Counted from the first letter of the stretch, positions 32,583 through 54,998 are shown. The stretch is DNA of 64,000 nucleotides from an uncultured Acidobacteriota bacterium (GCA_963777605.1 CAVZRV010000030.1:352001-416000), one strand, 5' to 3'. Translations and numbers: made by a program. Notes: generated by a model from the letters alone, not told the origin.

Positions 32583-32665
32583 AGACTAGACCCGGCACAC
32601 GCTTGGGACCAAAAATTTTCAGAAGGACCGAACACTTTCGGCTCGAGGTGTTCGGAATGTCCGAA
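32583..32665 (-). promoter_or_regulatory. Operator-promoter copy 1 (upstream of the peptide gene)
   Basis: Boxes at 32618-32632 and 32651-32665 (TTCGGAATGTCCGAA), 33 bp apart; putative -10 TAGTCT at 32583-32588. Confidence 0.75.
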
Positions 32666-32725
32666 AAGAGGTGACCGGAAAGGAATTCTTGATCTAAGCT
32701 GGAAGTCGCGAATAGACTTCAGGGG

Positions 32726-33466
32726 ATGTCGCTGTCTGAGATCCCAATGTTGTTCAACACGGGGCTGTTACTGGTTTTGGTTTTTCGGATGGTGAGCAAA
32801 GGATTGGTTTCGGATTACCGCGTTTTCTTCGGCTATCTGGTCTTCGAGACCATTGCAACCCTGGTTTCGGAGTGGATCATCCTCCAATTTGGATTGAATT
32901 CGACCGCGTACCGAATTGACTACTACACGTATTCGACTCTGACTCCGGCCTTCCAAATCTGGGTGCTCATCGACCTGGCTCGCCGCAACTTCCGGACCGG
33001 CAGCGAGTCTCCCCACGCCACCAACGTGCTCGCGGTGCTCTCGATCCTCGTGGGGCTTCCCGTGTTCGTGTTCATCGGGTTCTTACCGGTCTACGGCTAC
33101 GATCGGGTTCAGGCCGTCAGTCTGGTCTTTCAAATGGTCCTGACCCTGCTGATCTACCTCTACCTGCTGGAACGACGGGACATTGACCCGGGTAAGAACC
33201 TCAAGGCTATTCTGGGTGGGATGACCCTGATGGTCACCTGCCAGTCGTTGAATTTCGTGAGCTATTTCCAGGACCGAATCGGATTTGAGGTCTTCCAGTT
33301 CGGAGTCCCGGCGATCTACGGTGTGGCCCTGGTGATCTTCACCGTCGGACTTTGGAACTACGCACCGGCAAGTGCGTCGGCGGAACAGCGCACGCTGAAC
33401 CTGGGATTACAGCGGAGTGTCCGTTTAATGCTGCACCTTCTCTACGAGAGGCCATCCAGCCAATGA
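32726..33466 (+). CDS. Uncharacterised ~7-TM membrane protein (putative peptide receptor)
   Basis: About seven hydrophobic segments in 246 aa, no recognisable catalytic domain, divergent from the peptide gene. Confidence 0.75.
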   Translation: MSLSEIPMLFNTGLLLVLVFRMVSKGLVSDYRVFFGYLVFETIATLVSEWIILQFGLNSTAYRIDYYTYSTLTPAFQIWVLIDLARRNFRTGSESPHATNVLAVLSILVGLPVFVFIGFLPVYGYDRVQAVSLVFQMVLTLLIYLYLLERRDIDPGKNLKAILGGMTLMVTCQSLNFVSYFQDRIGFEVFQFGVPAIYGVALVIFTVGLWNYAPASASAEQRTLNLGLQRSVRLMLHLLYERPSSQ

Positions 33467-33885
33467 GATTCGATGACTACATTGAAATCTACTTCCTGGG
33501 ACTGGTCGCCTGTGTGGCCGTCGTTGCGGCCTACTACCACCTGGCTCGGATCGAGATCCGGGAATCGGATCGCAAGAAGCTCAGTGAAGCCAACCTCAAT
33601 CTGGAAGTGATCCTGATCATGCTGGAAGCGCCCGACACGCAGTACCTGATGTCAAAATCGGGCAGAGGAAAGTTCCTCTTCACGGAGTATTCCCGCTCGC
33701 TCAGGGCAGACGTCCTGGGGCTCATCCGGACACGGGAACTGGGTCTGAAGTCCTACGGACTGATTGCCGCCTTCTACGCCACCTATTGGGTAATGTCCTG
33801 GAAGAGCAAACTCTCGGCCAGTCTCAACGACATTCGCGTGCTCTCCGCGCTGGAACTCAGGCTGGTTCGGGCTCTAGTGTTCTGA
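33463..33885 (+). CDS. 140-aa hypothetical protein with N-terminal TM
   Basis: ATGA coupling to the TM gene; the C-terminal half is conserved in a second copy at 55724-55980. Confidence 0.75.
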   Translation: MRFDDYIEIYFLGLVACVAVVAAYYHLARIEIRESDRKKLSEANLNLEVILIMLEAPDTQYLMSKSGRGKFLFTEYSRSLRADVLGLIRTRELGLKSYGLIAAFYATYWVMSWKSKLSASLNDIRVLSALELRLVRALVF

Positions 33886-34452
33886 GTCGTCAGAGAACAG
33901 CGCACACCAGTTGACCAGGTAGTGCTGAACCAGCTTCTCCACGTAGCCCGGGCACCCTTCCGCCTTGAGGAAGAAATGGTAGGTGGCGTCGAGGTAGTTC
34001 TGCTGCCACCACAGGCCTTCACTGGGAGGATGGCCGTTTTCCAGGCGGACCAGACAGCGATCGAGCAGGAAGTCGCTCAAGTTCTGATACATCACGATCC
34101 GGCACGACCGGCCACGAACCTCAAACAGGGAACCCCCTTCAGCCCCGGAGAGCCGGATGACTTCTCCGAGGCGAAATTCCTGAAGCCGCCTCAGGTAGAG
34201 GAGTTCGCTGTCCTCGGCGCGGGTTCCTGACGATTCTGTCGGCCAGACTGCCGAGATATCGGCCTCGAGCACCCCGAGCACCCGGAACAGCGACTCCAGG
34301 TTCAGCCGGTAGGCTCCGGCCTCCATCGAGGCGTAGGAACTCGTGGGAATCCCGGCCCGCTCCGCAAGCTCCCTCAAGCCCACATTTCTCATCAGGCGCA
34401 GTCTTCGAAGCCGTTGTCTGACAAAATCATTCACCGATTGCCCGCAATCCAT
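33874..34452 (-). CDS. XRE-family HTH transcriptional regulator with unknown C-terminal domain
   Basis: LRRLR...VGLRELAERAGIP.SSYASMEAG...NLE.LFRVL..LE; RBS AAGGGGG. Confidence 0.88.
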   Translation of the reverse strand: MDCGQSVNDFVRQRLRRLRLMRNVGLRELAERAGIPTSSYASMEAGAYRLNLESLFRVLGVLEADISAVWPTESSGTRAEDSELLYLRRLQEFRLGEVIRLSGAEGGSLFEVRGRSCRIVMYQNLSDFLLDRCLVRLENGHPPSEGLWWQQNYLDATYHFFLKAEGCPGYVEKLVQHYLVNWCALFSDDSEH

Positions 34453-52604: not shown

Positions 52605-52614
52605 GTCAACTCTC

Positions 52615-54678
52615 CTATCGAAGTGATACGAATTCTCGAATATAGAGATGGTGAGTGCCTGTCTCCCCACTAGAACCGTAGTACATTAAAACAGGAACCG
52701 CATTAGTACCCAGATCCCAACTATACGGGAAGTTCACCTGAATGAAGTGATCTCCGGAACCAGTCGTAATCAAGGGAGTCCCGTTGTCGGAATTAGACGC
52801 ATAGAGAGTTACAGATTCGTCCGTGATTGTGACTGCAATCGACAGATTCTTCACGCCTCGCAGATCCAAGTAGTAGGGACTGTATGAGAGGTCCGTCAAC
52901 GGTGTATCGTAGACAATAAATGGATATGAGCGGTCAGACGGTCCCTTTAGATCTATCCCTGCAAATACATAATCGCCGAAACTCATGCGCTTATAGGTCC
53001 CCAGTGTGCCACAAGTCTGATTCGTTATTCCAGCATTTTCCACCAAGCCCACGCTTATTCGGCCCATCTCATTCATAATGTCAGTGCCCTCGTTCCGAGA
53101 TGTCACTCGAATGACCAGCGTTTGATCTTGGTTTTCCGGAGGAAATTCAGCCCAGTATCCTGCGATCGTCATGGCAGTAGAACCGGTAAATTCCGCATCG
53201 ATGGCGACATCGTCCGTGTCGACACCGTTGCTGTCGTCAACTTTACGAAGGACGGGATCACAAAGCGCGTATCCGTTCTGTGGTACGGCCCAACGGCTCT
53301 TAGTTGGGTTACTTAGAAACAAGCGTTGAGACGCCGGGCTGTCATCAAAGCTATCTCCAAATGCCCAGGGAGCGAGGTTTGCATTCAACATACGCCCGGT
53401 GTGCGTCACGCCGACGAGTGAGCCCGTCGATACGGGCTGAGACGACAGGAGCAGATTCTCCTTAATCTGCCAATATGTAAGATCGGGATTCACGCTCTTC
53501 ATCATACCAGCAACCCCCGAGACCAACGGGGCGGCCCAAGAGGTTCCACTATTGCGGCAAGTCGTTCCACAGTAGTTGACTGTGGCAGGATCGGCGCTGG
53601 CGCCCTCGGCGGTCCCGCCGCCATTTGTTGTACTATAGATCGCCACTCCGGGCGCAGCCAAGTGAACGCCTCGTCGGCCCAGGTTGGAGAAGCCCGCAAG
53701 GTTGCCAGCCTCATCTACAGCAGCAACACAAATGACATTCTTCAAATGATGTTTGCACGGAAAGACATCCCCGGCTTCCCAGTTCGTAGTATCAACATCG
53801 CGTCCATCGTTCCCTGCAGAGAATACAAAAAGTATATCATTGTCCTGCAAACTCTCGATGGCGGAAGCAATGTTGCTGTATTCATGGATCCCGTTCCAGC
53901 TATTGTTGATGATCTTTGCACCTTGGTCTTTCGCATAGCCATACGCCTGGATGAAGTCCGCTTCAGTGGGAACCCACTGTCCCTCAACCCAAATTGGAGA
54001 CAAAAGTTTGAGCGGGAGGAGGTTCACGTCCCACATCACTCCTGTCGCGCCAATGCCATTATCACCAACTGCGCCAATTAGTCCGGCCGTGAAGGTCCCG
54101 TGATCGTCGTCGTCATCGACTGGAGCATCGCCATCCTCATTCTCGTCATCGCGAAAGTTCTTGGCGTTGTCCAAGTCAAGATTGTCCACCAAGTCCGGGT
54201 GGTCCACATCAACACCAGTATCCACGACAGCAATCGTGACGTTTCCAGACCCTGTCTCCCACCTCCACAATTCTGGAGCATCGATGGCATCCAGGTGCCA
54301 TTGAGACGAGAAGCCAGGATCATTCGGGATTCTGACAGATGCTAGATCGGCCCAGACCACAGCGTTGCGCCTCGCCCGATGAACGACAGGAGAGTGCTCA
54401 TAGGCTAGGATAGCGGCATCCAAGTTTGCTTGATCGGGTAACTCAATCTCAAAGAAGATGACCTCCTTTGTCTCCAGCAGCCTTCTTCGGACAGTGGCAC
54501 TATTCGCAGCGTTCAGGGCATCGAGTTGGGACTTGGATGCTCCCGCATGGACCTGTAGGATCAGGCTGTTCGGGCGGAATTCTTCCCGTTGGCCAAATCC
54601 AATCAGTCCTATTGAGATGCACTCCAACACGACAAACATGAAGATCGGGAGAATGGGTTTCTTCACTGGTACTCTCAT
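52615..54678 (-). CDS. S8 family subtilisin-like serine protease
   Basis: Signal and propeptide; triad AVVDTG, HGT, SGTS.AAP; oxyanion SAGN. Confidence 0.95.
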   Translation of the reverse strand: MRVPVKKPILPIFMFVVLECISIGLIGFGQREEFRPNSLILQVHAGASKSQLDALNAANSATVRRRLLETKEVIFFEIELPDQANLDAAILAYEHSPVVHRARRNAVVWADLASVRIPNDPGFSSQWHLDAIDAPELWRWETGSGNVTIAVVDTGVDVDHPDLVDNLDLDNAKNFRDDENEDGDAPVDDDDDHGTFTAGLIGAVGDNGIGATGVMWDVNLLPLKLLSPIWVEGQWVPTEADFIQAYGYAKDQGAKIINNSWNGIHEYSNIASAIESLQDNDILFVFSAGNDGRDVDTTNWEAGDVFPCKHHLKNVICVAAVDEAGNLAGFSNLGRRGVHLAAPGVAIYSTTNGGGTAEGASADPATVNYCGTTCRNSGTSWAAPLVSGVAGMMKSVNPDLTYWQIKENLLLSSQPVSTGSLVGVTHTGRMLNANLAPWAFGDSFDDSPASQRLFLSNPTKSRWAVPQNGYALCDPVLRKVDDSNGVDTDDVAIDAEFTGSTAMTIAGYWAEFPPENQDQTLVIRVTSRNEGTDIMNEMGRISVGLVENAGITNQTCGTLGTYKRMSFGDYVFAGIDLKGPSDRSYPFIVYDTPLTDLSYSPYYLDLRGVKNLSIAVTITDESVTLYASNSDNGTPLITTGSGDHFIQVNFPYSWDLGTNAVPVLMYYGSSGETGTHHLYIREFVSLR

Positions 54679-54915
54679 TGGAGTCTCCTTCTGTCATTTT
54701 GGTCTGGTTTGAGAATTGTGCGCGAAGTACGGTTCCGAGATAACAGCGACGATCGTTCAGCTGACGTACGCTGAAAGGAGGAGTCTTCAAGCTGTGCCCG
54801 CTGGCGAGGCATATCATCACACACTAGGTTGAAGACTCTGAGCGGTGGCTGATTCTCCATAACAAACGCCTTCGGGTGGGTCTTTCACTCTGTGGGAACT
54901 TACAACCCGGAGCGG

Positions 54916-54998
54916 ACCTTATCCCAGCATCGGCCTCTCGCGGAAAACAATTCGGCACAGCCGAACACTTCAGGCCGGAAGTGTTCGGAATATCCGAA
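54916..54998 (-). promoter_or_regulatory. Operator-promoter copy 3 (upstream of the subtilase operon)
   Basis: TTCGGCACAGCCGAA at 54951 and TTCGGAATATCCGAA at 54984; putative -10 TAAGGT at 54916-54921. Confidence 0.75.

Follow-up and report, generated by a model that had tools for sequence, protein, structure and literature searches.

The 64-kb stretch of DNA analyzed here (G000:C30:352001-416000, hereafter the window) contains three copies of a 48-bp bipartite element, each made of two 15-bp boxes of the form TTCGG-N5-CCGAA. Genes for a small secreted peptide, two membrane proteins with seven (7TM) and two (2TM) predicted transmembrane helices, regulators of the XRE family, an Rhs-repeat protein, and a subtilase lie around these elements (Table 1). 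Direct reading of the sequence gave TTCAGaaggaCCGAACAC-tttcggctcgag-GTGTTCGGaatgtCCGAA for site 1 (32618-32665), TTCGGgtattCCGAACAC-ttttgccccgaa-GTGTTCGGacattATGAA for site 2 (34600-34647), and TTCGGcacagCCGAACAC-ttcaggccggaa-GTGTTCGGaatatCCGAA for site 3 (54951-54998), where the middle part of each is the N12 centre. The core CCGAACAC-N12-GTGTTCGG was matched three times without mismatch in the window, compared with 0.04 matches expected, and none of 100 shuffled sequences reached three. An initial annotation of the window had placed three bipartite sites at these positions with 33 bp between the box starts, and both the coordinates and the spacing were exact. Its description of the promoter-distal box as perfect in every copy and the proximal box as degenerate in two was also correct within the window.

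A -10-like hexamer accompanies each site. In the window, TAGTCT, TACATC, and TAAGGT are separated from the inner GTGTTCGG by 39 nt, which corresponds to offset 30 from the outer edge of the operator. These positions had been annotated correctly, as had the poor -35 elements, whose best matches at the three promoters were only 2-3/6. On the other side of site 1, TAAGCT (32695-32700, + strand) likewise stands at offset 30.

Table 1. Features around the three bipartite sites of the window. Offsets are counted from the outer edge of the operator.
Feature	Coordinates	Strand	Remarks
Operator site 1, class B	32618..32665		between the peptide gene and the 7TM gene
Site 1 boxes	32618-32632; 32651-32665		first box TTCAG..CCGAA, degenerate, peptide side; second box perfect
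Operator site 2, class A	34600..34647		perfect box 34600-34614 (XRE side), degenerate box 34633-34647 (cargo side)
Operator site 3, class A	54951..54998		both boxes perfect
-10-like TAGTCT, peptide promoter	32583..32588	-	offset 30; best -35 TTGGTC, 3/6
TGgTACATC, extended -10-like element	34674..34682	+	hexamer TACATC 34677-34682 at offset 30
-10-like TAAGGT, protease-operon side	54916..54921	-	offset 30
Secreted-peptide gene, 54 aa	32384..32548	-	N-terminal hydrophobic segment, C-terminal CC and poly-Pro; GGAG 7 nt before ATG
7TM-operon promoter candidates	32689..32718	+	TTGATC (32689-32694), N18, TAGACT (32713-32718; offset 48, kept in relatives)
mem246, 246-aa membrane protein	32726..33466	+	seven predicted transmembrane helices and a C-terminal helix; no family match
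mem140, 140-aa membrane protein (2TM)	33463..33885	+	start overlaps stop of the 246-aa gene; no family match
XRE regulator, 192 aa, intact	33874..34452	-	N-terminal HTH_3; C-terminal alpha-beta-beta-alpha-beta-beta-alpha domain (roadblock/LC7-like)
XRE gene promoter candidate	34487..34515	-	TTGACA-N17-TAACGT, 85 bp from operator edge
231-aa secreted protein	34737..35432	+	first gene of the Rhs operon; no family match; homologues behind like operators in the genome and in another genus
Rhs-repeat protein, 1899 aa	35432..41131	+	
Peptidase S8 (subtilase), 687 aa	52615..54678	-	
61-aa ORF (MENQ start), possible gene	54675..54860	-	stop overlaps subtilase start
XRE paralog promoter candidate	55090..55118	+	TTGACT-N17-TAACGT, 92 bp from operator edge
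XRE paralog, frameshifted	55151..55727	+	two single-base deletions; HTH open (119-aa ORF), C-terminal domain out of frame
Cargo of window site 2			231-aa secreted protein and 1899-aa Rhs protein
Cargo of window site 3			61-aa ORF and S8 subtilase
Other cargo (class A sites or C13:7016)			M12B-like metallopeptidase; second Rhs operon; PAS/HisKA/HATPase/REC hybrid kinase; paralog of the 231-aa gene
ORF, open reading frame; HTH, helix-turn-helix.

In the 6.73-Mb assembly, ten sites with an N12 centre were found at no more than one mismatch. Contig C44 carries an eleventh site, in which the centre is N14 and the box starts are 35 bp apart, compared with 33 bp in the other ten. The control pattern read backwards had no match in the genome. 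All 11 sites lie inside copies of one cassette and none lies outside. The cassette consists, in order, of the peptide gene (- strand), a class B site, the genes for the 246-aa and 140-aa membrane proteins (+), the convergent gene for the 192-aa XRE protein (-), a class A site, and the cargo (+), and in four cassettes the two sites are 1.26-2.0 kb apart. The promoter-side box is degenerate in three of the six class A sites, and in the class B sites it is the peptide-side box that is degenerate; the arms of the far box are perfect. The three sites of the window had been proposed to define a regulon, which they do not, because the genome contains 11 sites, and six XRE paralogs of which two are frameshifted. 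A wider regulon of single boxes was considered and rejected: TTCGG-N5-CCGAA occurs 40 times in the genome, compared with 21-34 times at other spacings, and 25 of the 40 boxes lie outside the bipartite sites. A second complete cassette, inverted, is located 3.9-6 kb past the right end of the window (G000:C30:419933-421972), and the two cassettes of this contig bracket about 33 kb that contain an Rhs operon, insertion sequence (IS) elements, a restriction-enzyme fragment, and the subtilase locus.

The mean pairwise identity among the ten N12 sites was 0.93 over the 26 arm positions and 0.43 over the 22 spacer positions. Because the arms are conserved whereas the spacers are free, the sites behave like operators. 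TAnnn[T/C] was present at offset 30 on 14 of the 20 flanks of these sites, no other offset from 1 to 109 reached four, and the genome-wide frequency of this hexamer is 0.9%. When the eleventh site was included, the hexamer was present on 16 of 22 flanks, and the six negatives were exactly the six XRE-facing flanks. All six of these carry TTGAC[A/T]-N17-TAACGT at offsets that vary from 79 to 97, which served as an internal control. At the offset-30 promoters, the best -35 matches were 1-4/6 and the hexamers matched TATAAT at 3-5/6; the two hexamers that end in C, both in front of Rhs-type operons, have TGn just upstream. Among representatives of four lineages, the identity of the flanks was 0.43 at offsets 1-29 and 0.32 at offsets 36-60, and the TA was invariant. 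The contrast between the canonical XRE promoters and the offset-30 flanks indicates that the organism uses an E. coli-like -35/-10 grammar and that, unlike the XRE promoter, the promoters of the cargo and of the peptide keep a fixed phase relative to the operator.

These results bear on how the initial annotation had read the sites. Its reading of them as operators holds in that the arms are conserved, the spacers are free, and the distance to a -10-like hexamer is fixed, the last on the cargo and peptide sides only. It had also proposed that the operators might autoregulate the divergent genes. For the XRE gene, autoregulation through the operator appears unlikely, because none of the six flanks that face an XRE gene has the offset-30 hexamer and the distance to the XRE promoter varies from 79 to 97 bp. 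At site 1, the divergent gene does not encode XRE but belongs to the 7TM-protein operon, whose conserved promoter follows another fixed geometry, with its -10 at offset 47-48. On the whole, the initial interpretation is partly supported: the kind of element (operator, XRE binder, factor-dependent promoters) agrees with these results, and the number of sites was too small.

The six XRE paralogs in the genome are 80-92% identical, and four are intact. The frameshifted copies are the one beside site 3, with two single-base deletions, and one on contig C31, with one. They may be real pseudogenes and not assembly errors, because neither deletion lies in a long homopolymer. The recognition-helix segment, SSYASMEAGAYRLNL, is identical in five copies, including the frameshifted copy beside site 3; in the sixth, on C31, the frameshift falls within this segment. 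Pfam HTH_3 (PF01381) matched residues 36-84 of a 213-aa ORF with 26.9 bits, above the cut-off of 23, and the frameshifted copy at 55151 with 24.7 bits.

In an AlphaFold2 model of the XRE protein with a pLDDT (the predictor's confidence score) of 85.8, residues 7-62 form a Cro/CI-type HTH and residues 79-192 an alpha-beta-beta-alpha-beta-beta-alpha domain. The N-terminal part has the five-helix Cro/CI-type fold, as judged from SinR (3qq6; root-mean-square deviation (rmsd) 1.5 over 68 columns) and C.AhdI (Z 10.9, rmsd 1.5 over 66 residues). Besides SinR, the fold matches include ClgR (the top Foldseek match), HipB, DdrO, 434 Cro, ComR, PrgX, and controller proteins, among them C.Esp1396I, whose PDB title describes a tetramer on its operator. 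The N-terminal domain of lambda cI with sigma region 4 (1rio) was also matched. For the C-terminal domain, the matches were the roadblock/longin domains of MglB, Rag-type, and Mon1/Ccz1 proteins (Z 8.5-10.4). MglB 6hjm had a Z of 10.1 (rmsd 3.1, 102 aligned) and LokiRagM a Z of 10.4, compared with 9.4 for GAF domains; best Z values of 7-8 are common without true relatives. No Pfam profile, roadblock/LC7 included, matched outside the HTH at E <=0.01, and NCBIfam gave weak HTH-related matches only. The C-terminal domain is described as roadblock-like, and family membership is not claimed. A predicted complex of two XRE copies scored 0.30 relative to a mark of 0.42 and was counted neither for nor against binding.

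The cassette was then compared across the bacterial order to which the genome belongs; to judge from one source name and the commonest phylum of Atlas clusters, this order is probably part of the Acidobacteriota. Full-length XRE homologues with 36-55% identity, together with both membrane proteins, are grouped into this three-gene unit in many of the order's genomes; the homologue tallies include the unpublished genome G018, on which no conclusion depends. The 246-aa protein of this 7TM/2TM/XRE module was present in 26 of 76 genomes of the order and in 9 of 401 genomes of a phylum-wide sample, and 8 of these 9, with the window genome, are in this order. Operators upstream of the 7TM gene were scored by self-complementarity and TT/AA ends alone, in a pair of palindromes at 31-34 bp. 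At 13 of 22 loci, two 15-bp palindromes 32-33 bp apart scored at least 12 of 14. As background, 11 of 618 tiles (360 bp) of the relatives' loci scored at least 12, and these loci themselves hold operators. On the peptide side, 9 of 16 loci had TAnnnT at offset 29/30, and all 16 had NAnnnT there; on the 7TM side, 9 of 16 had TAnnnT at offset 47/48. No other offset reached three. An ORF of 53-69 aa with a hydrophobic N-terminus, a C-terminal CC, and a Pro-rich tail was present at 13 of 19 loci when the first ATG was taken as the start. In addition, the half-site varies with the residues that follow the recognition helix: GAYR goes with TTCGG, G[Y/F]Y[N/K/R] mostly with TTTGG, and GQCR with TTCGA. 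This covariation is suggestive, although confounded by phylogeny.

In genus g3, each of three genomes has one XRE cassette, and two-box operators are also found far from it. One of these remote operators precedes a homologue of the 231-aa gene of the Rhs operon and is present in four identical copies in genome G014 (L080:4157-4203, L081:3870-3916), with TTGACA-N17-TAAAGA on its other side. Another remote operator has TATAA[A/G] at offset 30, followed by a conserved structured segment of about 85 nt. The g3 operators are the best indication that the element may be read in trans.

The segment of about 85 nt (L077:3945-4030, - strand, and L078/L079; genomes G010, G002, and G014) is nearly invariant and contains two hairpins, the second with compensatory changes between the three g3 genomes. 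It had no Rfam match and was not found in the window genome. This segment may be a small RNA under the same regulator.

Taken together, the pattern, its geometry, its conservation, and its co-occurrence with the cassette suggest, with a probability of about 0.7, that the element is a tandem dimer operator of the cassette XRE proteins that controls the outward promoters. Each 15-bp palindrome would be occupied by one XRE dimer, and the 33-bp spacing, about three helical turns, would put the two dimers on one face of the DNA. The half-sites are one helical turn apart and the boxes an integral number of turns apart, as they are at the 32-33 bp of the relatives. Because the order has kept the two-box operator together with the XRE cassette, the XRE protein is the obvious binder, and the likely binders here are the 192-aa proteins of the same cassette. 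The five copies whose frame is open through the recognition-helix segment do not differ in it, so that the XRE copies should cross-regulate, and the intact operator of the subtilase operon, which lies beside a broken XRE copy, would be served by the intact paralogs.

We infer from the sequence that binding is cooperative and that the bound protein probably activates. Activation is favoured because the -35 elements are poor, the gap is rigid, and the far box is strong and the near box weak: the strong distal box would help to fill the weaker promoter-proximal box, which would touch RNA polymerase. The promoters controlled in this way would be those with a -10 hexamer at offset 30 (a 29-nt gap) and a poor -35, which serve the CC/poly-Pro peptide, two Rhs operons, the S8 and M12B-like proteases, and a hybrid histidine kinase. 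With transcription starting about 7 nt past the hexamer, the proximal box would span about -56 to -42, and the centre of the distal box would lie near -82. On the opposite side, a promoter that has a -35 of its own and a -10 at the fixed offset of 47-48 would serve the 7TM operon. The XRE gene would be transcribed from a canonical promoter apart from these, which keeps no fixed phase with the operator. The circuit could reinforce itself, since the peptide promoter is among the targets.

Several points weigh against a tandem XRE operator that activates. With its centre near -49, the proximal box does not stand where a textbook activator would bind, which leaves room for repression or dual control. 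A strict sigma-70 scan (-35 and -10 each at least 4/6 consensus, 16-18 bp between) returned no promoter-like site at 32350-34800 or 54600-55250, because the offset-30 hexamers match TATAAT at only 3-5/6; such poor canonical matches fit factor-dependent promoters and prove nothing. The 11 sites stem from about four paralogous lineages and are not 11 independent events. Contig C44 (30 kb) may be a strain variant of the locus at C31:245-250 kb that was collapsed into the bin (contamination 5.68%), and not a true paralogous locus: the proteins downstream of the two cassettes are 95-100% identical, and the C44 cassette is decayed. Among the relatives, 5 of 22 loci scored 9 or less and have no convincing operator, one of them on a truncated flank. 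The covariation of half-site and protein residues is confounded by phylogeny. Finally, the palindromes fold well as RNA (z -2 to -6), and one box with a T-run was flagged as terminator-like.

The same operator and binder could also serve a repressor or a dual switch, which we regard as decidedly unlikely. Here, XRE would occupy the proximal box, up to about 5 bp from the -35 position, or loop between paired sites about 2 kb apart, and the peptide and cargo promoters would be shut until a signal releases it. Repressors are common among XRE proteins with this fold (of the fold matches, SinR, 434, DdrO, and HipB), the sites are paired at 1.26-2.0 kb in four cassettes, and the 7TM promoter, which has its own -35, would need no activator. 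However, the operator overlaps neither the -10 nor the predicted start at any of the 16 promoters, and these promoters have no usable -35 (1-4/6). Furthermore, the 29-nt gap is kept despite diverged flanks, which a contact between protein and polymerase would demand and simple occlusion would not.

It is very improbable that the palindromes act as RNA or DNA hairpins (terminators, insulators, or attenuators) and not as protein sites. The folding noted above, which reaches -20 to -32 kcal/mol over 68-nt stretches, would suit such a role, as would the T-rich run after the element on the promoter side (AATTTTTG, TTGTTTTC) and the terminator-like call at 54966-54950 (- strand), of which 0.5 would be expected by chance. 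However, every site is flanked on both sides by the 5' ends of divergent genes and, to judge from the outward-facing -10 hexamers, is not part of the predicted transcripts. Relatives have kept only the two 15-bp boxes and lack the long central stem (CAC-N12-GTG). The half-sites also change as words (TTCGG, TTTGG, TTCGA), mixed boxes such as TTCGG..CCAAA lose pairing within one strand, and no Rfam family matched in the window. Least probable of all is that the sites mark the ends of a mobile cassette or serve in its recombination, or that they are functionless relics of a recent duplication. They do bracket a multi-copy three-gene module, and the window contains a tRNA gene as well as IS66 and IS240-type transposase genes. 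However, family searches found no recombinase encoded in the cassette, and the arms were kept while spacers and flanks drifted. In other families, at 25-35% protein identity, single-copy cassettes carry the operator at the corresponding position, and it also stands at remote loci without a cassette.

The proposed tandem XRE operator resembles several known systems in part. At lambda OR1/OR2 with PRM, CI bound to the stronger site helps to fill the weaker one, and the proximal dimer lies beside a weak -35. By analogy, the elements described here would share the XRE/Cro-CI HTH, the two dimer sites, the pairing of strong with weak, and a proximal dimer by a weak -35. In contrast to lambda, the boxes are 33 bp apart from centre to centre and not adjacent, the C-terminal domain is roadblock-like and not an S24 peptidase, there is no phage immunity region, and the promoter of the regulator itself is uncoupled from the operator.

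The controller (C) proteins of restriction-modification (R-M) systems act as activator and then as repressor, and their sites are located directly upstream of their own genes. C.Esp1396I and C.AhdI share with the cassette protein the XRE fold, and their two palindromic dimer sites, read by a tetramer, are a likeness that could give a concentration-dependent switch. However, the matched C chains are single domains of about 65-80 residues, compared with 192 aa and an extra domain here; the targets here are neighbouring operons and not the regulator itself; and no R-M link was observed at the cassettes. The XRE protein was consequently not assigned to the C proteins, given its second domain, its own promoter 79-97 bp off, and its membrane-protein and peptide neighbours.

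The RRNPP regulators (PlcR-PapR, Rgg-SHP, ComR-ComS, and PrgX) are peptide-sensing proteins. As in that class, the XRE HTH protein has a gene for a small secreted peptide beside it, and palindromic boxes precede genes for secreted proteases and toxins. Assignment to the class was rejected: where RRNPP regulators have a TPR peptide-binding domain, the C-terminal part here is a small alpha/beta roadblock-like fold. Two membrane proteins also take the place of an Opp-type importer, and the proteins of the relatives point to Acidobacteriota and not to Firmicutes. The comparison class is the one outlined in the abstract-level text of PMC7564271.

Small XRE-family proteins such as ClgR and NceR can activate from palindromic sites upstream of promoters; according to its abstract-level text, NceR is an XRE-family activator (PMC10470515). 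A tandem of two boxes, a roadblock-like domain, and a peptide/7TM cassette are not reported in that abstract-level text.

The genes that accompany the XRE regulator were characterized further. Peptide genes of 54-55 aa are present at the class B site in four cassettes, and the C-terminus of the window peptide is ...EDCCPTPPPPPPCRDGNC. In the window, the ATG of the 246-aa gene follows TAGACT by 7 nt (32713-32728), which suggests that the 7TM-operon message may be leaderless; in relatives, the -10 at offset 47-48 is followed by the start after about 8 nt. The model of mem246 (pLDDT 85.3) has seven transmembrane helices and a C-terminal helix, and Foldseek returned only weak G protein-coupled receptor and rhodopsin matches (best E 0.035), so that the protein is read as a seven-helix bundle and nothing more. 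Pfam and NCBIfam gave no match for the peptide, the 246-aa, 140-aa, and 231-aa proteins, or the 61-aa ORF, and the family searches found no AgrB-like match up to E 10.

The operator itself is of an ordinary kind, an XRE operator; the surrounding peptide/7TM/2TM/XRE-roadblock module is undescribed and is the more interesting lead. Among the titles and abstract openings returned by literature searches, none concerned the module, an XRE-roadblock fusion, or a CC/poly-Pro peptide. We tentatively propose, as an unlikely possibility, that the cassette is a new module of this order for cell-cell or envelope signalling. In this proposal, the peptide would be sensed or processed by the 7TM/2TM pair, which would hold or release XRE through the roadblock-like domain. 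Freed XRE would fill the tandem operators and switch on Rhs toxins, secreted proteases, and sensor kinases as well as, by positive feedback, its own peptide. If this is true, it would be a peptide-autoinducer circuit built from parts unrelated to Agr or RRNPP and amplified into six cross-talking copies.

To our knowledge, almost nothing is known about the control of transcription in this lineage. The sites provide a testable regulatory code, namely a 48-bp operator, a fixed 29-nt gap to the -10, and a defined regulator family, and the half-site and protein variants within the order form a natural series. If XRE activates, the sites would mark when the organism deploys Rhs toxins and secreted proteases, and they would link this deployment with the conserved secreted peptide and with the 7TM protein, perhaps a new route of signalling. 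Even if XRE only represses, the sites would be a clean example of how one operator comes to stand before new cargo when its cassette multiplies.

Directly downstream of the peptide gene, an ORF at 31645-32451 (- strand) contains PAS and HisKA domains, both below the Pfam cut-offs, and HATPase was not detected in it. This ORF may encode a sensor kinase that has been truncated; other cassettes have intact hybrid kinases as cargo. Downstream of the Rhs gene, the region 41620-44090 encodes a 519-aa protein with a trace of Rhs repeats (below the Pfam cut-off) and an SLT transglycosylase domain, as well as a 304-aa protein with a TonB C-terminal domain. The window also contains a tRNA gene (28387-28460), an IS66-family transposase gene (694 aa, 44979-47063), a TdeIII-like restriction endonuclease fragment (47988-48494), and an IS240-type DDE transposase gene (49434-50129), and a 154-aa ORF at 30303-30767 (- strand) is transposase-like by eye alone. 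The stretch from 28 to 50 kb looks like a mosaic island adjoining the tRNA gene.

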